The translations under genes and the position numbers were made by a program. A stretch of 64,000 nucleotides of DNA. Source: Bacteroidota bacterium. GTDB taxonomy: Bacteria > Bacteroidota > Ignavibacteria > Kryptoniales > JAKASW01. Location of the stretch: contig JAMCQL010000014.1 in assembly GCA_023381615.1 (NCBI GenBank), positions 16,569 to 80,568 of the forward strand, given 5' to 3'. Position 1 is the stretch's first letter. Each line of letters opens with the position of its first letter. Below, piece after piece: positions 3,058 to 21,382 of the stretch. The notes under the pieces are model-generated. The model did not search any database. It was given only the letters and a program-made list of their open reading frames with translations, and had not been told where the DNA came from.

Positions 3058-4698
<1,641 letters not shown>

Positions 4699-4702
4699 TC
4701 AT

Positions 4703-4987
4703 TTAGATAATTGCAAAGATGTCGCTTTCGCGCATGATGAGGTACTCTTCACCGTCGTAGTTAACTTCGGTGCCCGAATACTTTCCGTATAAAATTTTGT
4801 CTCCGACCTTCACATCGATCGGAATCTTCTTTCCATCGTCCGTGACTCTTCCGGGTCCAACGGCGACAATTTCGCCTTGCTGCGGACGTTCCTTTGCCGT
4901 GTCCGGAACGAAAAGTCCGCCTTTGGTTTTGTCGTCTGCCGGCAACGGCTTGACAACAACACGATCTGCCAACGGCTTAATCTTCAT
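4703..4987 (-). CDS. groS: co-chaperonin GroES (Cpn10)
   Basis: 94 aa, [14 protein letters not shown]...[14 protein letters not shown], located 19 nt upstream of groEL. Confidence 0.97.
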
Positions 4988-5036: not shown

Positions 5037-5063
5037 TTAGCACTTAGTCTGTGCGATTGCTAA
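5037..5063 (-). promoter_or_regulatory. CIRCE (HrcA operator) upstream of groES
   Basis: TTAGCACTT-N9-GATTGCTAA against consensus TTAGCACTC-N9-GAGTGCTAA, 50 nt upstream of the groES start. Confidence 0.7.
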
Positions 5064-5087: not shown

Positions 5088-5114
5088 CAAGCACTCTCTA
5101 ACCAAGAGTGCCAA
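5088..5114 (-). promoter_or_regulatory. second, more degenerate CIRCE-like inverted repeat
   Basis: CAAGCACTC-N9-GAGTGCCAA. The core AGCACTC/GAGTGC arms are perfect and the outer positions diverge. Confidence 0.5.
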
Positions 5115-5400
5115 CAGTCCATCGAGAATTGTAGGGAACCTGCCTTCGTTCACTGATTTCTTCGCAAATATCACGGAAAGTTGCCTCTTTGCTTTGCGGA
5201 AAAATGACCTGAGGGCCTAAACTTGCACTTTCAGATAGCAGATTTTTCCTGATTAACTTCGGCACGTCCGTTGCCCTTAATTCATTGCCCGGATGCCAAA
5301 AGCATCCGACCTGCAGCGAAGTTTCTACCGAAAAACTCAGAAAACTTCGGATGCTTGGAATTTTGAAGACCAACAAGATTTGAAGAAAAGGAGAAGTCCG

Positions 5401-10442: not shown

Positions 10443-10578
10443 AATCTTCAGAACCACAAGTAGAGTTCTGTGAACATCGAACAAGTAACTTCAGTTTTTC
10501 TTTTTGGAGTAAAGGCTCAAAAATTTTTTGCCTAAAACCTACTCCTGTTGGTGTAGATTTTATAAATAGGAGGTTGCG

Positions 10579-11013
10579 ATGACAACGGGGAAACTCTTGA
10601 AGATTGGGGAAGTTGCAAAGCGGTTAGGTGTTGCAGTGTCAACGGTACGAAAGTATGAGGCTGCTGGAATTGTCTTGCCCGTCCGTACGGCAGGCAAACA
10701 CAGGCTTTTCTCGGAAGATGACATTTACTGGTTGGGATGCGTGCGAGATTTGATCACACGTAAAGGCATGACTTTAGAGGCGATCAGAAGAATGGTTTCC
10801 ATGGTGCCCTGCTGGGAAATGCGAAAGTGTCCGATGGAAGAAAGGCTAAAGTGTCCTGCATATACGAATGATTCGGCACCTTGTTGGCTGCTCCACGGCA
10901 CTAGATTCGATTGTTCGACTGCGGATTGTCGGACTTGCGTTGTTTACAAAAGCGTTACTCACTGTGAAAATCTTAAAGTACTTCTTACTGAACTTGTTTA
11001 CTCGAAGGACTAG
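10579..11013 (+). CDS. MerR-family regulator with a duplicated P-C-W Cys-rich C-terminal module
   Basis: N-terminal HTH is IGEVAKRLGVAVSTVRKYE. The C-terminus reads VPCWEMRKCPMEERLKCPAYTNDSAPCWLLHGTRFDCSTADCRTCVVYK. The start is preceded by AGGAGG. Confidence 0.8.
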   Translation: MTTGKLLKIGEVAKRLGVAVSTVRKYEAAGIVLPVRTAGKHRLFSEDDIYWLGCVRDLITRKGMTLEAIRRMVSMVPCWEMRKCPMEERLKCPAYTNDSAPCWLLHGTRFDCSTADCRTCVVYKSVTHCENLKVLLTELVYSKD

Positions 11014-11015
11014 GA

Positions 11016-12020
11016 ATGCAAAAAGTAATCACATTAATATTTTTCTTTCTTACACTCTTGGTTAGTGCTTCTGCCGGCATTTATCAAGCTCAGAAGTTTC
11101 CACTTGGCGTTGACAACACTCAGCGCTGCTTGAGATGTCATGGGATGCACAATTTCACTTATGTTGATAGCTCTAAGACTTTAGTTAATCTCACTGTTGA
11201 TTCGACAATTTTCTTCTCATCCGTTCACGGAAAACTCCAATGCCAGTCGTGTCATCCCGGAATAACTGAGTATCCTCACAATCTTTTGGCGGCAGGAAAA
11301 ACGACTTGCGCTTCCGAGTGCCACGCAACGAAAGAAGGCAAACCTTACGATCACAAAACCGTCTACGAAACTTTCTTACACAGTGTTCACGGAAAAAGTC
11401 TTACCGGTAAGGATCCGGACGCACCGACTTGTCTAACGTGTCACGGAGGAAGTGCACACGTGGTGCAGCCTGTCAAAAAGGTGATGAAGGTGGACGAGAA
11501 GATGGCACTGTGCGTTTCGTGTCACAGCAATCGTGAGATGATGGTCAAGCACAAGGTCGATCCTAATGCTGTTAGCTCGTATGAAAGAAGTTTCCATTGG
11601 AAAGCGATCCATTATGGATATGACAAGACTGCGGTTTGCGAAAATTGTCATACGAGCCACTCGGTTCTGCCGCCTGAGAACCCGTATTCCACAGTGAACA
11701 CGGCAAATCTTGAAAAGACTTGCGGACAGACCAATTGTCATCCGGGTGCAAAAATGAACTTTGCTATGTCAAATGCAAACCACCTCGAGTTTATGGTGGA
11801 AAAGAAACCAGTCCTTCGATACGAGGAGAAATTTTTTTATGTCTTGACGGACGGCACTTTAATGATGCTTGCGGTAGGAATTGTGCTTGATGTTCAGCGG
11901 AAATTTGGCTGGATCTTTTTGATCAAGAGATTGTTCGTTTGGCTTGATAGAAAGACAGACCAGCTTGGGAACATGATCGTGAAAGTCTTGAAATTCATAA
12001 AAAAAGTATTAGTGGATTGA
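11016..12020 (+). CDS. membrane-anchored multihaem c-type cytochrome
   Basis: Has a signal/anchor sequence and five CXXCH motifs (CLRCH, CQSCH, CLTCH, CVSCH, CENCH). It also has CASECH and CGQTNCH variants and a C-terminal hydrophobic helix. Confidence 0.8.
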   Translation: MQKVITLIFFFLTLLVSASAGIYQAQKFPLGVDNTQRCLRCHGMHNFTYVDSSKTLVNLTVDSTIFFSSVHGKLQCQSCHPGITEYPHNLLAAGKTTCASECHATKEGKPYDHKTVYETFLHSVHGKSLTGKDPDAPTCLTCHGGSAHVVQPVKKVMKVDEKMALCVSCHSNREMMVKHKVDPNAVSSYERSFHWKAIHYGYDKTAVCENCHTSHSVLPPENPYSTVNTANLEKTCGQTNCHPGAKMNFAMSNANHLEFMVEKKPVLRYEEKFFYVLTDGTLMMLAVGIVLDVQRKFGWIFLIKRLFVWLDRKTDQLGNMIVKVLKFIKKVLVD

Positions 12021-12028
12021 GGTTCACC

Positions 12029-12799
12029 ATGAAAGAAAACAAACAAAAAGAGAATCAAGAATACTTTGTAAGATTAAACTTATTCCAGAGAATTCAGCAC
12101 TGGATGCTGCTAGGCAGTTTTATCCTTCTCGCTGTCACCGGACTTCCAATGAGGTTCCCGGATGTCCGATGGCTTGGATTTGTCTATCGTCTTGTCGGCG
12201 GGTTGGAAGTAGCCCGAACAATTCACCGGATTGCAGCCGTGATTATGATTGTTGGTGGGCTTATTCATTTAGGCTACATACTCTATTTACTCAAGAAGAA
12301 CAACTTCAAAATCCTTAAGGCTTGGCCCATGATACCTACATGGAAAGATGCGGTCGACTGGTGGAAGACGTCGCTTTACTATTTTGGGTTGAGGGACAGT
12401 CTTCCTCAGTATGATCGTTTCAATTTCCGTGAGAAGTTCGATTACTTTGCTGTGTTCTGGGGATTGCCGGTTATGATGCTTTCCGGATTAGTTCTCTGGT
12501 TCCCAGTCTTTTTTGGAAACCATCTTCCAAATCTTGCGATTGACATTGCATATATCGCCCACAGCGATGAGGCAATTCTCGCAATCTCGGCAATTGTACT
12601 CTGGCATTTTTACAACGTGCATTACGATCCCGACAAGTTTCCAATGAGCTGGATATGGTGGCACGGTAAGATCTCAAAAGAAGAAATAAAAAAAGAACAC
12701 CCACTTGAGTATCAAAGACTTATTTTGTCTGATATTGCCGACAACTCAATCAGCAACAAGCAATCCTTAGAAATAAATCCAAAACAAAACAAAAGATGA
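12029..12799 (+). CDS. integral-membrane b-type cytochrome subunit (FdhC/PhsC/hydrogenase cyt b-like)
   Basis: Multiple TM helices carry conserved His residues (RIQHWMLL, TIHRIAAV, IAHSDEA, LWHFYNVH). I chose the ATG at 12029 after GAGG; a TTG at 12017 is also possible. Confidence 0.65.
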   Translation: MKENKQKENQEYFVRLNLFQRIQHWMLLGSFILLAVTGLPMRFPDVRWLGFVYRLVGGLEVARTIHRIAAVIMIVGGLIHLGYILYLLKKNNFKILKAWPMIPTWKDAVDWWKTSLYYFGLRDSLPQYDRFNFREKFDYFAVFWGLPVMMLSGLVLWFPVFFGNHLPNLAIDIAYIAHSDEAILAISAIVLWHFYNVHYDPDKFPMSWIWWHGKISKEEIKKEHPLEYQRLILSDIADNSISNKQSLEINPKQNKR

Positions 12800-12843
12800 T
12801 TACTTATTCAAAAAAACTCTTTCAATTGGAGGTTAGTTACGCA

Positions 12844-14862
12844 ATGTCTTCCTCAAAAAAGAAACGCTGGATAATTCGAATAGCTGGACTGGTAATAGTC
12901 CTTGCGCTGTTCGTGTACTTTGATTGGTCGAACCTGCTAAACCTGATTGTCCCTTACAATGTACGCACCGGTGAAGTTGACTATTCATCACATCCGGTTA
13001 GTAATGCTCAGTTTGAACAAATAGCGCAATCTCTCCTTAATTCAAAATTTGATTACCAGACGATTGATTCGTCGGCGTTGTCAAACTCTGTATATAAACA
13101 GGTTGCACGGACTCTCGCTGAAAATCACCTTCCCTCGTTATACCAAAAAATCGGCTTGAACCACATTGACTATTTTCGTAAAGCCGGCATTCGAGAATAT
13201 GACGGCCCAAAAACTTGCTTGAAATGTCATTCGACAATCCAGGTAAAGAACAGCCACGGCAGTTATGACAAGGTAAGTCTGAAAGAAGACGTTCTTTCGA
13301 GCGTTCATTTCAGGCTGAACATGTGGCATGGTTTCAGCACTGTTGGTTTTGACGGCAGACCGGTTAAAGATATTCCCTTGGGAAAGATCGACCGTGCTTG
13401 TGGAATACCGGGAAGTTTTACGTGGGTGGCATGGGCTGCCTTAGTTAAAACAAAAAACGGGGAAACCAGAAGCGATGGATGCGGCCAGTGCCATATTGGC
13501 GGAAATTACGGTCCGCCTACCGGAACTATGCTGCCGGGTTACAAGCCGACTGATGATGAATTCAATTCTATAGATTGCCTGATTTGTCACTCGCAGTCAT
13601 ACGACATGAATCAGCTTTATGTTGTCAAAGATCCGAATGGCAAACTCCGTTGGCATCAGGATAGAAGTCTTGAAGCTGCAATGTCAGTTACAAAGCCGAC
13701 GAACAACACTTGCTTGCGATGTCATCAACATAATTTCGGCGGCGACCTCTATCCGGGAAATGTTGCAGCACATGAACTTGGGTATAAAAATCCTCGACTT
13801 CTTCACCCGGGCGCAAAGAGAGGTACGCCATTTGGCATCGAGGATGTTCACTATAGAGCTGGTGTTCAATGTCTCGATTGCCACGAAGCCCACGGACACA
13901 AGATCGCGCGCGGCGATATGGGGACCGACCTGATCGACAACGATCTACCCGGCGTCAAGGTAAGCTGCACAAAGTGTCACGGGGACTCTCCGCACATTCA
14001 GAATCCCGTTACCCGCGCATTCTTGAATGCTCACACCGATAAGATTGCTTGCGAGACTTGCCACATCCCAAGCCTGCGGCCAGAAAACGTTGTGCTGCGA
14101 GACTGGGCAGATCCGGTATTCAGCGATGAGGAGCAACTTTACGTTTACCGTGACGTGCTTCGTTCGGGCGCTCCTGATACAGCGATCGTTTATAAGTGGT
14201 GGAACGGCTGGGGAACGTTCATGGCAGGTGCTCTCGGAGATAATCCGAATGGACTTCATACTTACTATGCCTTCACCACTCATCCCGATTCAGCGTTCAA
14301 GAACTTCAACTATAAGGCATACTACGACAGCGTGCTGAGACCTGTTGCCGATCTTGGCAAGTCGAAGATCTATCCGTTCAAGAGATTCAATGCCAAGATG
14401 TACGAGGATATGGACAATCAGGGGCCTTTCGGCGGAATGATCCTTCCATTCGACTACCCAACTTATTATGAAACGGGCGACGCAAAAAAATCAGTCGAAG
14501 TGGCGCTTCAGCAGCCGATCATGAAAGAACTCTACGGTTCAATGTTCAAGTACTATATTATGGACGACTACATGCATTACATGGACATCGAGAAAGGCTG
14601 GACGATTCCATTTACGAACAACATTGAAGCGAAGTGGATGAGACAGGATGCAACCCTTATGTTGAACCATTACATCAGAAAGAGTCAAGCTCTACAGTGT
14701 CAGCAGTGTCATGCTCCTGTAGGAAAGGGAATCATGCCTTTTGAAGAATTAGGTTATCCGCCGGCTCGCGTGAAGGACCTTAGAAATCTTCCGGAGCTTA
14801 AGTTCGTTCTTCCGCTTGAAAAAGCTGAGCAGTTGCGAAATGCAAAGGTGACTGCCAAGTAG
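12844..14862 (+). CDS. octahaem c-type cytochrome, N-terminally anchored
   Basis: Eight CXXCH motifs (CLKCH, CGQCH, CLICH, CLRCH, CLDCH, CTKCH, CETCH, CQQCH). The ATG at 12844 follows GGAGG. TM helix WIIRIAGLVIVLALFVYF. Confidence 0.8.
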   Translation: MSSSKKKRWIIRIAGLVIVLALFVYFDWSNLLNLIVPYNVRTGEVDYSSHPVSNAQFEQIAQSLLNSKFDYQTIDSSALSNSVYKQVARTLAENHLPSLYQKIGLNHIDYFRKAGIREYDGPKTCLKCHSTIQVKNSHGSYDKVSLKEDVLSSVHFRLNMWHGFSTVGFDGRPVKDIPLGKIDRACGIPGSFTWVAWAALVKTKNGETRSDGCGQCHIGGNYGPPTGTMLPGYKPTDDEFNSIDCLICHSQSYDMNQLYVVKDPNGKLRWHQDRSLEAAMSVTKPTNNTCLRCHQHNFGGDLYPGNVAAHELGYKNPRLLHPGAKRGTPFGIEDVHYRAGVQCLDCHEAHGHKIARGDMGTDLIDNDLPGVKVSCTKCHGDSPHIQNPVTRAFLNAHTDKIACETCHIPSLRPENVVLRDWADPVFSDEEQLYVYRDVLRSGAPDTAIVYKWWNGWGTFMAGALGDNPNGLHTYYAFTTHPDSAFKNFNYKAYYDSVLRPVADLGKSKIYPFKRFNAKMYEDMDNQGPFGGMILPFDYPTYYETGDAKKSVEVALQQPIMKELYGSMFKYYIMDDYMHYMDIEKGWTIPFTNNIEAKWMRQDATLMLNHYIRKSQALQCQQCHAPVGKGIMPFEELGYPPARVKDLRNLPELKFVLPLEKAEQLRNAKVTAK

Positions 14863-14882
14863 AAATAAAATTCAGTAAGATC

Positions 14883-14923
14883 AAAAAAAGCGGCGTGGAG
14901 CTAACCTTCATGCCGCTTTTTTT
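14883..14923 (+). terminator. Rho-independent terminator of the cytochrome operon
   Basis: AAAAAAAGCGGC...GCCGCTTTTTTT stem-loop with a T-run, 21 nt after the stop. Confidence 0.8.
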
Positions 14924-15455
14924 GTTTTGATGGGTCGTGAGTTTATACTGTTTTTCCAAGCGCCAAACATCAGTAGAGTCCGATTCTCAATCGGACGCTA
15001 TTTCCCCCTCACTCCAGCACTTAGAAACGTTCGTTAGCTTTTACTTGGGTTGTCCCAAAAGGTCTGAAAATGTCGTTGCAGGATGTCCCGATTTTTCCGA
15101 ATTTATAGCGAGCTTCGCGCTAGGATCTCGTCTCAGCGAGCCTGTTGCCTTTAGATTTGTAATCGGGCTCTACATATTTTGTCTTGGGACAAACCGCACC
15201 AGCCGAATTTGGTAAATCGCCACGTTCTGAAGCTTACATATCTCGTGTCATAGTGATCGTCCGAAAGAGGGAGATCGCCGGTTGGAGAATATATCTAACT
15301 AATTGTCATTCCAAGAGTCATACAACCGCTTCTCTTTCTCTTGCTTCCGCCCTAACCGCACCATCAATTTGGTTTGGCACGACTGTTGATGCTACATTAG
15401 CGAATGTAGGTTATATGTAGCAGATATTGTAGAAAACATCAAAAGAAAGATCAGT

Positions 15456-15932
15456 ATGCAGACAGACTTGGGAGTTTACGATCCGGTCTTGACAATTGGG
15501 ACAGTTGCGAAGATGCTTGATATTGCGGTTCAGACGATAAGGATGTACGAGCAGGAGGGGCTGATTATAGCCTACAAGACTGAGGGCGGGCACCGGATGT
15601 ATTCGCTGCATGATGTGGAAAGACTTCGATGCATCAGGAAGATGATTACGGAGCATGGGCTGAACATCAACGGGATTAGGAAAATGATGTCTCTAGTTCC
15701 TTGTTGGGGCTTCAAAGGAGGACTGGATGATGAATGCAGACAATGTCCTGTGTACTATGACGCCGAAGGCCCATGCTGGGCGCAAAAGAATGTCGGGTCA
15801 AAGTGCCGGCTGGCAGATTGCAGATCTTGCCCCGTCTACAGAATTGAGTTTAACTGCACTACAATAAAGGAAGTCGTTTTTGGACATAAAAGAGATATAA
15901 AACCACTTTCAAATCAAGAACAAAAAAAGTAA
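15456..15932 (+). CDS. MerR-family regulator, paralog with the same P-C-W Cys-rich module
   Basis: HTH is IGTVAKMLDIAVQTIRMYE. The C-terminus reads VPCWGFKGGLDDECRQCPVYYDAEGPCWAQKNVGSKCRLADCRSCPVYR and aligns without gaps to 10579..11013. Confidence 0.8.
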   Translation: MQTDLGVYDPVLTIGTVAKMLDIAVQTIRMYEQEGLIIAYKTEGGHRMYSLHDVERLRCIRKMITEHGLNINGIRKMMSLVPCWGFKGGLDDECRQCPVYYDAEGPCWAQKNVGSKCRLADCRSCPVYRIEFNCTTIKEVVFGHKRDIKPLSNQEQKK

Positions 15933-15943
15933 ATGAGGAAATT

Positions 15944-17182
15944 ATGAAAAAACTTGTGATTCTCGGAGCGGGCACAGCAGGAACCATCATGCTCAACAAA
16001 TTGTCTGCTGCGCTTGACAAAAAGGAATGGCAAATAACGATTGTGGATCAAAACGAGACGCACTATTATCAGCCAGGCTTTCTCTTCATACCCTTTGGAA
16101 TTTATACGCGAGACGATGTTATCAAACCGAGGCGCGACTTCTTTCCGTCCGGCACTGAAGTCATCATTTCTCCTATCGAGTTAATTCTCCCGGCGGAAAA
16201 TAAAGTCAAACTTGCCAACGGGAAAGTTCTTAACTATGATTACTTGATAATTGCGACCGGCACCCAGATCCGTCCCGAAGAGCTGGATGGCTTGACAGGT
16301 GACGGATGGAGACAAAACATTTTCGACTTCTACACGGTTGATGGTGCTGTGGCGCTGAGCAACTTTTTGAAATACTGGAAAGGCGGCAAGATGGTGCTAA
16401 ACATCGTGGAGATGCCGATAAAGTGTCCGGTCGCACCTCTTGAATTCGTATTCCTGGCTGATTGGTGGTTTACTGAACAAGGGATCCGGGACAAAGTTGA
16501 GATCGAGTATGTAACACCATTGCCAGGTGCATTCACAAAGCCGATCGCATCAAAGTTTCTCGGCCAGTTTCTTGAAAAGAAAAATATCAATTTGACCACC
16601 GATTTTAGTACAGGCAAAGTTGACAGCGGAAACAATAAAATCGTTTCATGGGACGGGAAAGAGATTTCCTACGATCTGTTGGTTACGATTCCGACCAACA
16701 TGGGTTCAGATCTGATTGCACGTTCCGGCATGGGAGACGATTTGAATTACGTCCCGACAGATCCCAAAACGCTCCAGTCAAAGAATTACGAAAACGTTTT
16801 TGTGATTGGCGACGCGGTCGACTTGCCTACATCGAAAGCAGGTTCGGTTGCGCACTTCGAAGCCGAGATACTTTTCGAAAATTTCCTGAGAAAGATTGAA
16901 GGACGGAAACTTGAACCCAAATTCGATGGGCATGCCAACTGCTTCATAGAGTCCGGGTTTGGGAAGGGGATTCTGATCGATTTCAATTATGATGTTGAGC
17001 CTCTGCCGGGCAAGTTTCCTCTTCCGGGCATCGGCCCGTTCTCGCTCCTTCAGGAGACGCGCATGAATCATTGGGGGAAAATGACGTTCCGCTCAGTTTA
17101 TTGGAATCTCCTTTTGAAAGGCGCGGAATTACCTGTTGAATCCCAAATGAACATGGCAGGAAAAATGAGGATGCAGCAATGA
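15944..17182 (+). CDS. FAD-dependent pyridine-nucleotide-disulfide oxidoreductase, sulfide:quinone oxidoreductase-like
   Basis: 412 aa. Has the N-terminal KKLVILGAGTAGT Rossmann motif and VFVIGDAVDLPTSKAG. Confidence 0.7.
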   Translation: MKKLVILGAGTAGTIMLNKLSAALDKKEWQITIVDQNETHYYQPGFLFIPFGIYTRDDVIKPRRDFFPSGTEVIISPIELILPAENKVKLANGKVLNYDYLIIATGTQIRPEELDGLTGDGWRQNIFDFYTVDGAVALSNFLKYWKGGKMVLNIVEMPIKCPVAPLEFVFLADWWFTEQGIRDKVEIEYVTPLPGAFTKPIASKFLGQFLEKKNINLTTDFSTGKVDSGNNKIVSWDGKEISYDLLVTIPTNMGSDLIARSGMGDDLNYVPTDPKTLQSKNYENVFVIGDAVDLPTSKAGSVAHFEAEILFENFLRKIEGRKLEPKFDGHANCFIESGFGKGILIDFNYDVEPLPGKFPLPGIGPFSLLQETRMNHWGKMTFRSVYWNLLLKGAELPVESQMNMAGKMRMQQ

Positions 17183-17898
17183 GCACAGAGTTAATCGAAC
17201 AGCAGTTGGCGGATATTCAGCAAAAGCTGAATTTTATCAGTGAGGAAATGCAGGAATATCGCGCACGTCAACGCGAGTTGCAGGAGTTCAAGAACGATTT
17301 CACACTGATTGCCAAAGATGTTTTCCAGGCAGCGTCGGAAGAACTCGAGGAGGTGGGGAATCACTTTGACACGGCAGACATTCTTCACCTGTTCAAGAAG
17401 CTGCTGAGAAACGTCAGGAATTTGAACAAGATGCTGGATCAGATGGAGAGCGCACAAGATCTCTTCCGCGATGCAGGGCCGCTTGGGAAGATAGTGTTCG
17501 ATGAACTTCTGCATAAACTTGATGAGATGGATAAGAGAGGATACTTCGATTTCCTTCATGAGGCAGGAAAGTTAGTTGACCAGGTCGTTACTTCCTTCAG
17601 TCACGAAGATGTGCGCCTGTTGAGGGAAAACGTCGTTTCCATTCTTTTGACCGTCAAGACCATAACTCAACCAGAAATGTTAGCACTTACGAACAATGCT
17701 GTCGGATTCTTCAAAAAGATGAATGCCGATGTAAGAGAGAATGTTTCTTTCTTTGAGCTTCTGAAAATACTCAGAGACCCGCAAACGAGGCGGGGGATTG
17801 TCTTCATGCTGGAGTTCGTAAGGAAAATGGCGAGCTCCAATGGAGGAACGACTCAAGGGCACATTACAAGCAGTAACTTATTAACCAAAGGAGAATAA
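17179..17898 (+). CDS. DUF1641-like protein (usual partner of SQR-like flavoproteins)
   Basis: 239 aa, helical. The C-terminal LLKILRDPQTRRGIVFMLEFVRKM resembles the DUF1641 signature. It overlaps the upstream gene by 4 nt. Confidence 0.5.
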   Translation: MSTELIEQQLADIQQKLNFISEEMQEYRARQRELQEFKNDFTLIAKDVFQAASEELEEVGNHFDTADILHLFKKLLRNVRNLNKMLDQMESAQDLFRDAGPLGKIVFDELLHKLDEMDKRGYFDFLHEAGKLVDQVVTSFSHEDVRLLRENVVSILLTVKTITQPEMLALTNNAVGFFKKMNADVRENVSFFELLKILRDPQTRRGIVFMLEFVRKMASSNGGTTQGHITSSNLLTKGE

Positions 17899-17900
17899 CC

Positions 17901-18218
17901 ATGGCAATGAAAAATCTGGCGGGAAAAACCGTCGAAGTAAATGATGAAGGCTTTTTGGCAAATCCGAATGATTGGACAGAAGATATGGCGCCAGAGCTGG
18001 CAAAGGAAGAAGGGATAAATACCCTGACCGAACAGCATTTGAAAGTTATACGATTTATGAGACAGGACTACAAAGAGAAAGGACAGATCCCAACGATAAG
18101 GCGCATTAAGAATGCAAGTGGAGTTGGCGTGCAGGATCTTTACGCTCTTTTTCCTGAGGGTCCTGCAAAAAAGGCAGCAAAGATTGCCGGACTTGGTAAA
18201 CCGGTCGGCTGCGTGTGA
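17901..18218 (+). CDS. TusE/DsrC-family sulfur-relay protein (single C-terminal Cys)
   Basis: 105 aa ending ...GLGKPVGCV. Only the penultimate Cys is present, and the second DsrC Cys about 10 residues upstream is absent. Confidence 0.75.
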   Translation: MAMKNLAGKTVEVNDEGFLANPNDWTEDMAPELAKEEGINTLTEQHLKVIRFMRQDYKEKGQIPTIRRIKNASGVGVQDLYALFPEGPAKKAAKIAGLGKPVGCV

Positions 18219-18272
18219 ACTATTCTTTGAAATTTCTAACAAAAATTTATTTATCGGAAAGGAAACTTTAAA

Positions 18273-18743
18273 ATGGCTGAAGAAAAGATCAAAAAAGTCT
18301 CCATTGTTGTTTCTAAAGGATCGCTTGAAGGAATCTATCCCGGTTTGATCATGGCAAATGGGGCAAGGATGGAGGGAATGGAAGCCAACCTGTTCTTCAC
18401 TTTCTTTGGGTTGGAAGCGGTTTTGAAGAACAAGATGGACAAAATAAAAGTCGCAACGGTTGGCAATCCTGCGATGCATCTTCCATCATTGCTAGGCATA
18501 ATTCCCGGGATGTCGGCATTTGCCACTTCCAAGATGAAAAAGGAAATGGAGAAGTTAGACATACCACCTGTCGGAGAATTCATAGAGATGATCCACGATG
18601 CTGGCGCTAAGCTTTACGCATGTAAAGCAACGGTGGAGATGTTTCATCTCACGAAAGATGATTTCTGCGGACAAGTAGAGGCAATTATTCCGGTTGGGAA
18701 ATTTTATGAAGTCTCCGCTGGCGGACAGATAATTTTTACATAA
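18273..18743 (+). CDS. DsrE/DsrF-like (COG2210-type) sulfur-transfer family protein
   Basis: 156 aa. Has KVSIVVSKGSLEG...FFTFFGL...LYACKATVEMF. Confidence 0.65.
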   Translation: MAEEKIKKVSIVVSKGSLEGIYPGLIMANGARMEGMEANLFFTFFGLEAVLKNKMDKIKVATVGNPAMHLPSLLGIIPGMSAFATSKMKKEMEKLDIPPVGEFIEMIHDAGAKLYACKATVEMFHLTKDDFCGQVEAIIPVGKFYEVSAGGQIIFT

Positions 18744-18772
18744 CTGTCAAACGAATACTCAAGTGAAAACAA

Positions 18773-18813
18773 GAAGGCGATGCGGTAATTCCACATCGCC
18801 TTCTCTGTGTTTT
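18773..18813 (+). terminator. Rho-independent terminator of the sulfur operon
   Basis: GAAGGCGATG-N11-CATCGCCTTC followed by TCTGTGTTTT. Confidence 0.75.
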
Positions 18814-19111
18814 AGCTGGACATAGAAACCCCACCGTCTTTTCCCAAAGGACTCGTGCGGAGACGGTGTTTATGTACAAATGGCTTTGTCTGTTTATCGA
18901 CCCTTACTGTCCTCCCCGCAAAGTCGGGACGGGGCTTCTCCCCCTTGTCAAGGGGGAGAAAAAGAGGGGGTTGTCCACGGGATCTCCGCTTACGGAGTCT
19001 TCGACCTGCGGAAAAGAAAGCCGCCGCCTACGGCGGTGGTCGTTTACCTTTCGCTCTATTCTTACAGAATTAGCAGCCGCCAGCCATTTCGATATTATCC
19101 ACATAAGTTTA

Positions 19112-21382
19112 CTATCCGGGGAAACTGTCTGACCCAATGCTTACTTTAAAAATGAAACTCCTCGGAGTTCCCCAAGCCGCGCCGCTGAAGAACGAACCTT
19201 TCAGCAGATATTGGTGGTTGAGAATGTTATTTACATAAAGTTCCGGCTTTATGCTGAAATTATTCCAATAAAAAGTTTTGCCGAGTGAGCCGTCGAATAT
19301 GAGATGCGGATTCACGTGTCCATTGACTGTGCCGTTTGCCAAGCCGCTTCCATAGCTCCCGACCATGCTTGCGAAGTAACCGCTCTTGTCGTAGTTGACT
19401 CCGAGAGAATATGTGATTCTCTGATCATGGTCGAGGTCGAATGCGGTTGTCGGCGGAAGGGCGGGCAGGAAACCTCCGGTTGTTGTTCCCACACCTTGCG
19501 CGTGGCTGACAGCGAGATTGAAGTAACCGGTTAGCGGTCCTTCAGGATGGTAATCGATTCCAAGTTCAGCGCCGCGCACAAAAATTTCCTGAATATTGAC
19601 TGCTGTTTGGAGATTCGTGCCGGGGATTGTGTTGTCATCCATCCCGGGATTTTCTTCGGTGTAATAGCCGACGAGTTTTGTCGAAATTGAATTTGTAAAC
19701 GAGTGAGTAATACCCGCTTCGAAGTAATTCCCCCTGACGGCTTTCGTCGGCTGCGAGACCGTGCCCGTGGCGCCGGTGATTTGTCGCAGCTGCTCGATGA
19801 GTACCGGCACGAAAAGCCGTCCGTAGTAAACATAAGCTGTTGTTGACAAATCGGGTATGTAGGTGAGTTTTACTTTCGGCGAAACCTGCGATTCGCTTCC
19901 GATGCCTTTAGCATAATGCAAATCGTATCTGACTCCTGCGTCAACCTGGAAAATCGGAAGAGGCTGGTAAACTGTTTGGACGTAACTGCCGAAGTCGTAC
20001 CCCTGTAGAGCCTCGATTGACTGGGGTCCAACTATGTTGCCATTGAATGTAGAAAAGTTTTCGTTGCCGCTTGTCCAGTAGTTTGAAGCGCCAACTTTGA
20101 ACGACAAATTGTCTTTTACCGGCAAAGACACATCAGACTTTATTCCGTAAACATTAAATTTTCGATCTTCTTTAATGTTATAGGCGGTAGTCGTGTCTCC
20201 AGAAAAGAAGAATGATGGAACGTCATTTGTCCCCGGCGTGTATGTTGAAGTCCCCTGTCTGTGAGTTACTGCAATGAATAGTTCACCCGAATTTGCATCG
20301 TCTCCAAAACCATGCCTGTAGATAAGATTTTGGAAGCCGCCGTTCTGTTGCTGATTGTCGTTCATTGTAATCCCACCCGTCGAATCGTATGGAACTTGAA
20401 ATTTAGAATTACTGAAGTCGAGGTCGAGCGCAAGAATATCGTTCGGGGAAAAGATGTACTGAACTTTGCCAAGACCGTACAAATCCTGACCGTGGTCGTG
20501 AAAAATATCAGGCATCGGTGTATCAATCCTTCTGTCGGTGACTTTCCTTGAGCCGGCGAAAAAGTAAGCGAAGTTTCCCGTGTGCGCATTAAACGAAAGC
20601 GACTGTCCTGACGAGTTGAAACTGCCGAGATAGCCGGAAGCATTTGCATGGAGTTTTGTAGCAGGTATTTTTGTTTTCACGTCAATAACAGCGAGCGCGT
20701 CTCCGTACTCGGCCGGGAGATCGCCGACACGGAATGTGATGCGGTCGACGACACGCGGATCAAAGAGTTCCGTCATTCCTTCGCTTTGTGTCTCGGGAAT
20801 TGGGACGCCATCCACGTAGTATGAATATTCGGCATGTTGTCCGCGAATGTGGACTTCGCCGGTCGGAGCCTGCACAGCACCCGGGATGTTTTGCTGAATG
20901 ATGGTGGAGGGGAGGCTTGTTGGCGCAGCGTGATATGTGTTCTCCTGGAAGAGCAGAGCGTTTGTTATGATGTCAAGTTTCTCCCTGTGCGCCTTATTCT
21001 GTGAATTTGCCGTCACCGTAACCCCTTCAAGCGTAATGTCGCTCGCTTCCAAAGCGAAATTCAATTCATTACGGCCTAACGCGAGGTCTGTATTTGTTTG
21101 TGATTTCTTGAATCCGACGATATATGCGACGATTGTGTATCGTCCCGGGATCAGGTTTCTTATTTCGTAATTGCCTAACTCGTCTGCGATTGTCCCGGTT
21201 ACAACGTCATTTCCTCTCATCACTGCAACTTCGGCATAAGCGATTGGGTGCCCGTCGGCTTTCTCAGTAATTTTCCCGCTAATTGACGCCCTATCGGATT
21301 TTTCCGGCACAGGCGCTTGTGAAAATGCTGTGACTTGAAAAGCTGTGAAAATGATTATTGATATAACGATGCTCCTCAGCAT
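19112..21382 (-). CDS. TonB-dependent receptor with N-terminal carboxypeptidase-regulatory-like domain
   Basis: 756 aa. Has a signal peptide and a CarbopepD_reg-like segment (GKITEK..GHPIAYAEVAV..GRYTIVAYIVGF), then a plug and a long Gly/Tyr/Asn-rich barrel. Confidence 0.8.
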   Translation of the reverse strand: MLRSIVISIIIFTAFQVTAFSQAPVPEKSDRASISGKITEKADGHPIAYAEVAVMRGNDVVTGTIADELGNYEIRNLIPGRYTIVAYIVGFKKSQTNTDLALGRNELNFALEASDITLEGVTVTANSQNKAHREKLDIITNALLFQENTYHAAPTSLPSTIIQQNIPGAVQAPTGEVHIRGQHAEYSYYVDGVPIPETQSEGMTELFDPRVVDRITFRVGDLPAEYGDALAVIDVKTKIPATKLHANASGYLGSFNSSGQSLSFNAHTGNFAYFFAGSRKVTDRRIDTPMPDIFHDHGQDLYGLGKVQYIFSPNDILALDLDFSNSKFQVPYDSTGGITMNDNQQQNGGFQNLIYRHGFGDDANSGELFIAVTHRQGTSTYTPGTNDVPSFFFSGDTTTAYNIKEDRKFNVYGIKSDVSLPVKDNLSFKVGASNYWTSGNENFSTFNGNIVGPQSIEALQGYDFGSYVQTVYQPLPIFQVDAGVRYDLHYAKGIGSESQVSPKVKLTYIPDLSTTAYVYYGRLFVPVLIEQLRQITGATGTVSQPTKAVRGNYFEAGITHSFTNSISTKLVGYYTEENPGMDDNTIPGTNLQTAVNIQEIFVRGAELGIDYHPEGPLTGYFNLAVSHAQGVGTTTGGFLPALPPTTAFDLDHDQRITYSLGVNYDKSGYFASMVGSYGSGLANGTVNGHVNPHLIFDGSLGKTFYWNNFSIKPELYVNNILNHQYLLKGSFFSGAAWGTPRSFIFKVSIGSDSFPG

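Follow-up and report, generated by a model that had tools for sequence, protein, structure and literature searches.

Two short MerR-type regulators with a compact two-CW cysteine domain and a predicted operator shared by their cytochrome and sulfur operons

A 64,000-nucleotide stretch of contig JAMCQL010000014.1 from a Bacteroidota bacterium of the Kryptoniales (assembly GCA_023381615.1), referred to below as the window, encodes two short MerR-type proteins, MerR-CW1 and MerR-CW2, each of which carries a cysteine-rich C-terminal module that is almost certainly homologous to the two-CW domain. Each gene is the first of a redox operon, a cytochrome operon for MerR-CW1 and a sulfur operon for MerR-CW2, and upstream of each lies a copy of the same 18-bp dyad. 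That the two proteins control the adjacent operons is probable, and we slightly favor the view that they are autoregulated local repressors in which the two-CW domain, as a metal, Fe-S or thiol site, senses redox or sulfur status.

The C-terminal module had been described in the original prediction by the pattern P-C-W-x12-C-P-x-Y-x5-P-C-W-x8-C-x3-D-C-R-x-C-x-V-Y, and both proteins fit this exactly (C78, C92, C102, C112, C117 and C120 in MerR-CW1; C83, C97, C107, C117, C122 and C125 in MerR-CW2). The six invariant cysteines of the pattern are thus present in both, but the module has seven in each protein, the additional one (C84 in MerR-CW1, C94 in MerR-CW2) lying outside the pattern at shifted positions and having escaped the count because the offset of the second cysteine differs between the two proteins. 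Among 183 copies of the domain, six columns are occupied by cysteine in at least 90% of cases (C78, C84, C92, C102, C117 and C120 in MerR-CW1 numbering), and the C112-type cysteine belongs to the loop that joins the second CW to the CxxC; its position varies in the MerR form, and it is invariant in the long-form copies described below. The proposed internal duplication is also supported, with profiles of the first and second halves aligning over 23 columns (hhalign 93.7%, E = 1.9e-7) and a unit PCW...C...C-x-x-Y occurring twice within the module, and with the qualification that the Cys/Trp-rich composition may raise the score of such a half-against-half comparison. We picture the two-CW domain as a pseudo-duplicated module of about 50 residues with seven cysteines and two tryptophans.

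For the C-terminal ~70 aa of both proteins Pfam gave no family even at E ≤ 1, and the cysteine module of MerR-CW and long-form relatives is also unmatched in Pfam, the eukaryotic zf-CW family included; profile searches of PDB sequences, run for both the MerR form and the long form, returned 0 matches. A 'two-CW' signalling domain had been tentatively named in the original prediction, and the right relative is NF045718 (two_CW_domain, NCBIfam), an 80-position model with a curated cutoff of 35 bits. Single scores are sub-threshold, with MerR-CW1 scoring 17.1 bits (E = 0.0055), MerR-CW2 not listed at E ≤ 1, and weak matches in 13 of 21 close homologs, but homology is clear at the level of profiles. 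A profile made only from the C-termini of MerR-fused homologs (A2) was searched against 1.84 billion representative proteins and matched 588 representative clusters (at a 50% identity level) at E ≤ 1e-3 and 81 at E ≤ 1e-10. A MerR helix-turn-helix (HTH) is present in 84 of the best 150 matches; those without one include methyl-accepting chemotaxis proteins with two tandem CW copies after the signalling domain (P0031, P0063), and there are further matches to a GGDEF diguanylate cyclase (P0118), a histidine kinase (P0140), an HD-GYP-type protein (P0152), a receiver-MerR-CW protein (P0163), and stand-alone CW proteins of ~80 aa, one of which, in Thermanaerosceptrum, has an uninformative gene context. 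Proteins P0031, P0063 and P0118 score 93, 91 and 78 bits against NF045718, all above the cutoff, and such cutoff-passing members are retrieved by the MerR-derived profile with E values down to 1.7e-20. When the MerR-only alignment was compared with eleven long-form copies, most of them from proteins passing the NF045718 cutoff, the match was strong (hhalign 99.1%, E = 4.7e-19).

The MerR form shares with NF045718 the two CW motifs and the same ordered cysteines (CW-x4-C-x7-C-x9-CW-...-C-...-C-x2-C-x-[VF]-Y), and differs by an 8-residue deletion between the second CW and the CxxC relative to the long form and by its wandering fifth cysteine. Judged from its sequence, the MerR C-terminal module represents a compact form of the two-CW domain, one missed when sequences are scored individually, and annotation pipelines leave it unlabelled because single sequences score 17 bits or nothing against the cutoff of 35. 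Chemoreceptors, histidine kinases, diguanylate cyclases and HD-GYP proteins would carry the two-CW domain as a cytoplasmic module as well. No published work on the two-CW domain or NF045718, or on MerR regulators of this type, was found in the literature within reach of our searches.

The N-terminal MerR HTH anticipated for both proteins is borne out by Pfam, with PF13411 (MerR_1) matching at E values of 5.9e-16 and 5.6e-18 and PF00376 above cutoff, as is the gapless alignment of the paralogs (BLASTP, 40% identity over 128 aa, 0 gaps, E = 9e-38). MerR-CW1 is identical to MCL4509789.1 and MCL5737474.1, for which the NCBI name is 'MerR family transcriptional regulator' only, and the other window protein, MCL5737470.1, bears the same name. 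No known MerR effector module (metal loop, SoxR cluster motif, GyrI-like, B12-binding) is matched in Pfam or NCBIfam, and the NCBIfam equivalog models cover the HTH part alone, all under cutoff; the C-terminus is accordingly unlike the known MerR effector domains, as originally proposed, in Pfam, NCBIfam, PDB sequences and Foldseek. SoxR identity was rejected, as the SoxR model TIGR01950 scores 42.2 and 31.6 bits with the HTH part only (cutoff 116.9), and the CX2CXCX5C [2Fe-2S] motif of SoxR is absent from both sequences.

In an AlphaFold2 model of MerR-CW1 (88-sequence alignment, pLDDT 88.3, pTM 0.81), a helix at residues 66-74 is followed straight from residue 77 by the CW module, a string of helices of 4-6 residues each. 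The longest helix after the HTH has 14 residues (129-142); K133 is invariant in alignment A1, and this helix is possibly a dimer contact. The model has no long antiparallel coiled-coil dimerization helix. Foldseek aligns ~62-65 HTH residues of the full model to PDB entries at low root-mean-square deviation (rmsd), with SoxR, NmlR, RacA, CarH, BldC, GlnR and CueR among the fold matches, and longer alignments have an rmsd above 5 Å; a CW-only model has 0 PDB matches. MerR-CW1 and MerR-CW2 thus have the HTH hallmark of the MerR family and lack a known effector module and, in the predicted structure, the coiled coil, and the compact two-CW domain would take the place of the usual coiled coil and effector pocket. 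They appear to belong to a subfamily of short MerR/HspR-like DNA-binding proteins that is widespread and unstudied.

Among NCBIfam HTH models the closest is that of the heat-shock repressor HspR (NF047375), and the Joint Genome Institute (JGI) annotation of homologs, 'MerR family transcriptional regulator/heat shock protein HspR', would have MerR-CW be this repressor. With scores of 49.7 and 70.5 bits against a cutoff of 105 this identity was rejected; moreover, HAIR element matches in the window are at chance level, there are two CIRCE elements at groES instead, and the MerR-CW genes head respiratory operons rather than chaperone operons, all of which makes HspR identity highly improbable. 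The two CIRCE-like inverted repeats, at 5037-5063 and 5088-5114, lie upstream of groES (4703-4987, minus strand; groEL follows at 3058-4683, minus strand), in a divergent intergenic region, and have 2 and 3 mismatches to TTAGCACTC-N9-GAGTGCTAA, with 0.01 expected by chance; their position implies HrcA control of the chaperonin genes.

The dyad CTACAY-N6-RTGTAG (18 bp, up to 1 mismatch) has only 2 matches in the 64 kb, one upstream of each MerR-CW gene, against a chance expectation of 0.15 from shuffles. In ~494 kb, consisting of the window plus fetched related loci (designated by L numbers), 10 of 12 matches with up to 1 mismatch are located 33-76 nt upstream of MerR-CW start codons. The MerR-CW1 dyad is kept upstream of the L023 and L038 orthologs, copies of the MerR-CW2 dyad, perfect or with 1 mismatch, are in the same place in L023, L035, L036, L037 and L038, and a relaxed form, CTAYAY-N6-RTRTAG, occupies this place in a distant clade (L005, L025, L028, L032, L033, and the second L035 gene), such that the dyad recurs upstream of MerR-CW homologs in several phyla. 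The letters of the half-sites are conserved and the 6-nt center is variable, which favors a protein-binding site over an RNA hairpin; the hairpin was rejected, as conservation of the half-site sequence itself goes beyond mere pairing. The dyad is very probably the operator of MerR-CW, and its presence upstream of both genes supports the wiring to the respiratory modules that had been suggested from the gene layout. Extra half-sites (ATGTAG...TTGTAG) downstream of the MerR-CW2 dyad may constitute a second operator, and in several CW2-type loci a further half-site or weak dyad is located ~23 bp downstream, seen in L023 and L038 as a second RATGTAR. Since the two predicted operators in the window are nearly identical, cross-talk between MerR-CW1 and MerR-CW2 is possible. 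Among the CW1 loci, the dyad is intact only where the cytochrome operon is retained.

Promoters were called from sequence patterns. In nine loci (every one of the six CW2-type genes examined, together with L025, L026 and the second L035 regulator), a sigma-54-type element, [T/G]GGCA[C/T]-N5-TTG[C/T/A], ends 2-5 nt before the dyad, and three of the nine have a perfect TGGCAC-N5-TTGC. As the background frequency of GGCAY-N5-TTG is only 5.3e-5 per nt, recurrence of the motif in this ~10-nt slot is not due to chance. Elsewhere (L005, L028, L030, L032, and by eye L027) a near-consensus TTGACA-N17-TAtAAT ends where the dyad starts. A protein bound to a dyad following the -10 box or -12 element would cover approximately -8 to +12, as expected of a repressor, and on this placement, the closeness of the HTH to HspR models, and the AlphaFold2 model with no long coiled coil, we incline somewhat to repression rather than activation. 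The regulator, presumably as a dimer, would bind CTAYAY-N6-RTRTAG abutting or overlapping the -10 or -12 element of its own promoter and so repress its own operon. The CW2-type promoters look sigma-54-dependent, in which case an enhancer-binding protein would provide a second input; L037 has a gene for such a protein ~5 kb away.

The MerR-CW1 upstream region can also be read in terms of a classical MerR activator, whose dyad would be centered in a -35/-10 spacer of 19-20 bp, with a dimer sitting in this over-long spacer, untwisting the DNA on signal and activating the cytochrome and sulfur operons. The HTH is of the MerR type, and in the window, L023 and L038 the region upstream of MerR-CW1 is readable by eye as a common TTGNNN-N20-TAGATT layout with the dyad in the spacer. 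However, the dyad overlaps the -10 box in this layout, its center being shifted toward that box and off mid-spacer; in other clades the spacer is an optimal 17 nt with the dyad after the -10 box, or the dyad follows a sigma-54 -12 element, a setting in which distortion of the spacer is not known to matter; and the AlphaFold2 model is without the long coiled-coil helix that transmits distortion in known MerR activators. The geometry of the MerR-CW1 promoter could represent either occlusion or MerR-like activation, and for the system as a whole we consider a classical activator unlikely.

Other features of these regions were noted. Sigma-54-like matches are not above chance across the window (6 found, 3.2 expected); one of them, CGGCACGTCCGTTGC (1 mismatch), is at 5260-5274, 19 nt upstream of an open reading frame (ORF) starting at 5293 that is probably the first gene of a Fer4_13/flavoprotein/alanine dehydrogenase/acetyl-CoA hydrolase cluster. 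Between the terminator of the cytochrome operon and the MerR-CW2 promoter there is ~450 nt of non-coding DNA (14925-15374) with no convincing ORF, and an RNA element in the 470-nt gap before MerR-CW2 is unsupported, as the whole window is devoid of Rfam matches. A direct repeat, AACCGCACCA-(N2-4)-AATTTGGT, is present at 15192-15213 and 15354-15373, with the copies 160 bp apart; each copy contains ACCA..TGGT and the second abuts the sigma-54-like element. A role as a site for an enhancer-binding protein is conceivable, but neither L023 nor L038 has the repeat conserved.

In agreement with the original prediction, each regulator heads a redox operon, with 2 nt separating MerR-CW1 from the cytochrome gene at 11016 and 11 nt separating MerR-CW2 from the sulfide:quinone reductase (SQR) gene at 15944. 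The CW2-type homologs are 57-73% identical, with many from Calditrichota, and the order MerR-CW, SQR, HMP, DsrC, DsrE2 is found in the window, L037, L038, L041 and L042, and also in L035 with a broken SQR frame. In L036, MerR-CW precedes a FadL-like channel with a rhodanese nearby, and L035, which is from the cultured Calditrichota strain GD2, has another MerR-CW gene at the head of a molybdopterin/Fer4/NrfD operon (Psr/Phs-like). A distant CW1-like clade with 40-46% identity comes from metagenome-assembled genomes labelled KSB1, 'Cytophagia' and 'Deferribacteres', and in 10 of 11 loci the gene is flanked by cytochromes with 7, 8 or 9 haems. The linkage to redox operons on which the original prediction hinged therefore recurs in other phyla, with conserved cysteines, but the link of MerR-CW1 to the cytochrome operon is absent in 17 of 20 close loci.

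Some of these loci have additional peculiarities. The type III SQR of L035 (7460-8714; Calditrichota bacterium GD2, CM137747.1) has no gene call and a frame shift near '...SKAGP*', to be explained either by a frameshift pseudogene or by an error in the assembly. In L041 (2739-6444), two MerR-CW genes bracket a single SQR-HMP-DsrC-DsrE2 operon, the first at its head and the second immediately behind DsrE2. In L005 and L028-L033 there are 9-haem proteins of ~870-975 aa that are transcribed divergently, at least one of which, that of L005, has a faint Por_Secre_tail match (type IX secretion system sorting) and an FlgD_ig domain; this hints that multihaem cytochromes controlled by MerR-CW are secreted or exposed at the surface.

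Several observations weigh against autoregulated repression of adjacent redox operons. The closest MerR-CW1 orthologs (68-84% identity, Kryptoniota) always follow a block of genes coding for Fer4_13, a sulfide/dihydroorotate-dehydrogenase-like subunit, a GltD-like flavoprotein, alanine dehydrogenase, and acetyl-CoA hydrolase/transferase, and among 20 close CW1 loci only the window, L023 and L038 have the cytochrome operon and MerR-CW2 after it. In the 17 others there is no cytochrome operon and the dyad is often degraded or absent; the regulator ends the metabolic cluster, often 3-60 nt after the acetyl-CoA hydrolase gene, and the next genes are unrelated ones or a TonB-dependent receptor (window homolog 19112-21382). 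The link between MerR-CW1 and the cytochromes is lineage-restricted. The neighbors of a further clade (L039, L040) are not respiratory operons but genes for thioredoxin, CsoR-like proteins and cytochrome c peroxidase. Within the window, the best guess at a MerR-CW1 promoter puts the dyad in a 20-nt spacer as in MerR-type activation, a consensus scanner reported no canonical promoter, and there is no gene for an enhancer-binding protein with a GAFTGA motif. Finally, the CW-only structural model is of mediocre quality (pLDDT 75), and no fold was matched by it.

Because it is missing in 17 of the 20 Kryptoniota-type loci, the ~8 kb from 11016 to 19100 constitutes a variable insert relative to most relatives. 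The GC content is 0.41-0.47 across 11-19 kb versus 0.46-0.52 in the flanks, with no clear island signal. In L003 and L007-L022 the same slot has different unrelated genes in different genomes, and is a variable hotspot.

Features of the two operons and their regulators are listed in Table 1. The 688-aa octahaem protein shows a weak relation to octahaem tetrathionate reductase (OTR), with 85 bits against TIGR04315 (cutoff 375). The model that identifies the SQR, NF049943, is named 'type III SQR, selenoprotein subtype'; the window protein has no in-frame stop and two cysteines (C161, C333), and looks like the Cys-containing equivalent of a family of selenoproteins.

Table 1. Coordinates of the MerR-CW genes, their domains, upstream elements and operons in the window
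Feature	Coordinates	Strand	Details
Candidate MerR-CW1 promoter	10528..10559	+	TTGCCT (10528-10533), N20, TAGATT (10554-10559); by eye, weak
MerR-CW1 predicted operator dyad	10539..10556	.	CTACTC-CTGTTG-GTGTAG; 1 mismatch; starts 40 nt before ATG
MerR-CW1 gene	10579..11013	+	144 aa ORF
MerR-type winged HTH of MerR-CW1	10600..10800	+	Residues 8-74; Pfam MerR_1, E 5.9e-16
Compact two-CW domain of MerR-CW1	10807..10947	+	Residues 77-123; Cys 78, 84, 92, 102, 112, 117, 120; Trp 79, 103
C-terminal helix of MerR-CW1	10963..11004	+	Residues 129-142; AlphaFold2 secondary structure
Multihaem c-type cytochrome	11016..12020	+	334 aa; 5 CXXCH + 2 CX3-4CH motifs
Membrane cytochrome b, Ni_hydr_CYTB/formate dehydrogenase gamma-like	12017..12799	+	4-nt overlap with both neighbors
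Octahaem c-type cytochrome	12796..14862	+	688 aa; 8 CXXCH
Intrinsic terminator closing cytochrome operon	14882..14924	+	Strong
Sigma-54-like -24/-12 element	15375..15389	+	TGGCACGACTGTTGA; ends 2 nt before MerR-CW2 dyad
MerR-CW2 predicted operator dyad	15392..15409	.	CTACAT-TAGCGA-ATGTAG; perfect match
Extra half-sites, possible second operator	15415..15432	.	ATGTAG...TTGTAG; downstream of MerR-CW2 dyad
MerR-CW2 gene	15456..15932	+	158 aa ORF
HTH of MerR-CW2	15492-15692	+	Residues 13-79; Pfam MerR_1
Two-CW module of MerR-CW2	15699-15839	+	Residues 82-128; Cys 83, 94, 97, 107, 117, 122, 125
Type III SQR	15944..17182	+	NF049943, 670.6 bits (cutoff 525)
DUF1641/HMP-domain protein	17179..17898	+	
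TusE/DsrC-family sulfur relay protein	17901..18218	+	
DsrE2-like sulfur carrier	18273..18743	+	

If the MerR-CW proteins are repressors, release would follow a change in a Cys-ligated metal or Fe-S center in the two-CW domain or, alternatively, thiol oxidation or persulfidation, arising from cellular redox or reduced-sulfur status. The consequence would be to turn on the quinol-linked octahaem cytochrome module for MerR-CW1, and the type III SQR-DsrC/TusE-DsrE2 sulfur module for MerR-CW2. We lean toward a metal or cluster bound by the two-CW domain because there are seven conserved cysteines, aromatics beside two of them, a C-P motif and a pseudo-duplicated layout, and because the domain is a module on many signalling proteins; the carrier lineages, taken as anaerobic or sulfur-cycling, are a further part of the argument.

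A sensor using thiols only, in which metal-free cysteines are persulfidated or cross-linked by polysulfide such that the DNA is released, much as with SqrR, CstR or BigR (functional analogs belonging to other families), is a serious alternative given the sulfur targets. The best-conserved targets are indeed sulfur modules (type III SQR, DsrC/TusE, DsrE2, and the Psr/Phs-like reductase), and there are also the nearby rhodanese and the OTR-like octahaem cytochrome. However, known persulfide sensors use two or three cysteines, and seven conserved cysteines with flanking aromatics and a C-P motif look more like a metal or cluster site; the same domain is also found on chemoreceptors, kinases and cyclic di-GMP enzymes, as well as next to cytochrome or thioredoxin genes in neighborhoods that have no sulfur genes. 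We therefore regard it as serious but not likely. It can also be envisaged that the two-CW domain is merely a structural zinc or dimerization module replacing the coiled coil, with the signal coming from elsewhere, such as a partner or an enhancer-binding protein. A dyad operator needs some dimer interface, the coiled coil is missing in the model, and small Cys-rich domains are often structural zinc sites. Against this, signalling proteins carry the domain repeatedly, often as tandem copies, and in kinase P0140 and cyclase P0118 it is the sole domain identified besides the output domains, as is typical of input domains, so that a purely structural role seems distinctly unlikely.

A broader generalization can be put forward tentatively, although we think it rather doubtful in its full extent. 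The two-CW domain might be a Cys7 Fe-S or metal sensor of redox or reduced-sulfur status that serves as a general cytoplasmic input module in anaerobes, feeding chemotaxis, two-component, cyclic di-GMP and transcriptional outputs, with the MerR fusions being a new class of local repressors; in Kryptoniota, Calditrichota, KSB1 and further phyla, these would gate the sigma-54 and sigma-70 promoters from which genes for sulfur and multihaem-cytochrome respiration are transcribed. How sulfide oxidation, sulfur relay and multihaem-cytochrome respiration are regulated is essentially unstudied in the FCB group (Fibrobacteres-Chlorobi-Bacteroidetes) and candidate phyla, mostly uncultured (Kryptoniota, Calditrichota, KSB1), and the present annotation of these regulators is plain 'MerR family' or, wrongly, 'HspR'. 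The analysis yields testable outputs, namely a domain family of at least 588 clusters, a predicted 18-bp operator and predicted target operons, and assigns a likely role to a catalogued, unstudied domain borne by many signalling proteins. Should it prove to be a metal-cluster or thiol sensor, it would be a new input module for bacterial signal transduction, and the regulators would provide an example of a MerR-type protein at sigma-54 promoters.

Among known regulators, the short members with no effector pocket (HspR, BldC, GlnR/TnrA and RacA) share the MerR-type winged HTH with MerR-CW, and as in HspR-like binders the operator coincides with or follows the -10 box, a repressor-like placement; MerR-CW differs from them in its C-terminal domain, and from HspR in its operator, CTAYAY-N6-RTRTAG rather than HAIR, and in its respiratory and sulfur rather than chaperone targets. 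SoxR, a [2Fe-2S] redox-sensing MerR activator, is the nearest mechanistic precedent, combining a MerR HTH with a Cys-ligated redox center, and its operator is also an 18-bp dyad. Unlike MerR-CW, SoxR has a coiled coil and the CX2CXCX5C motif, and it is an activator acting in a 19-bp spacer. Sulfide- or persulfide-responsive regulators of sqr operons include SqrR (ArsR family), CstR (CsoR family), BigR, and the sigma-54 activator FisR, and no MerR-family regulator of this kind turned up in our literature searches. These, too, are local regulators of SQR and sulfur-transfer genes, and their Cys-based sensing and, for FisR, the use of sigma-54 are precedents for MerR-CW; they have no sequence relation to it, and have 2-3 reactive cysteines where MerR-CW has a seven-Cys domain. 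MerR-CW thus joins a MerR-type regulator to a catalogued, uncharacterized sensor domain, with a predicted operator and a regulon hypothesis to go with it, and it may be the first example of action at sigma-54 promoters by a MerR-type protein.

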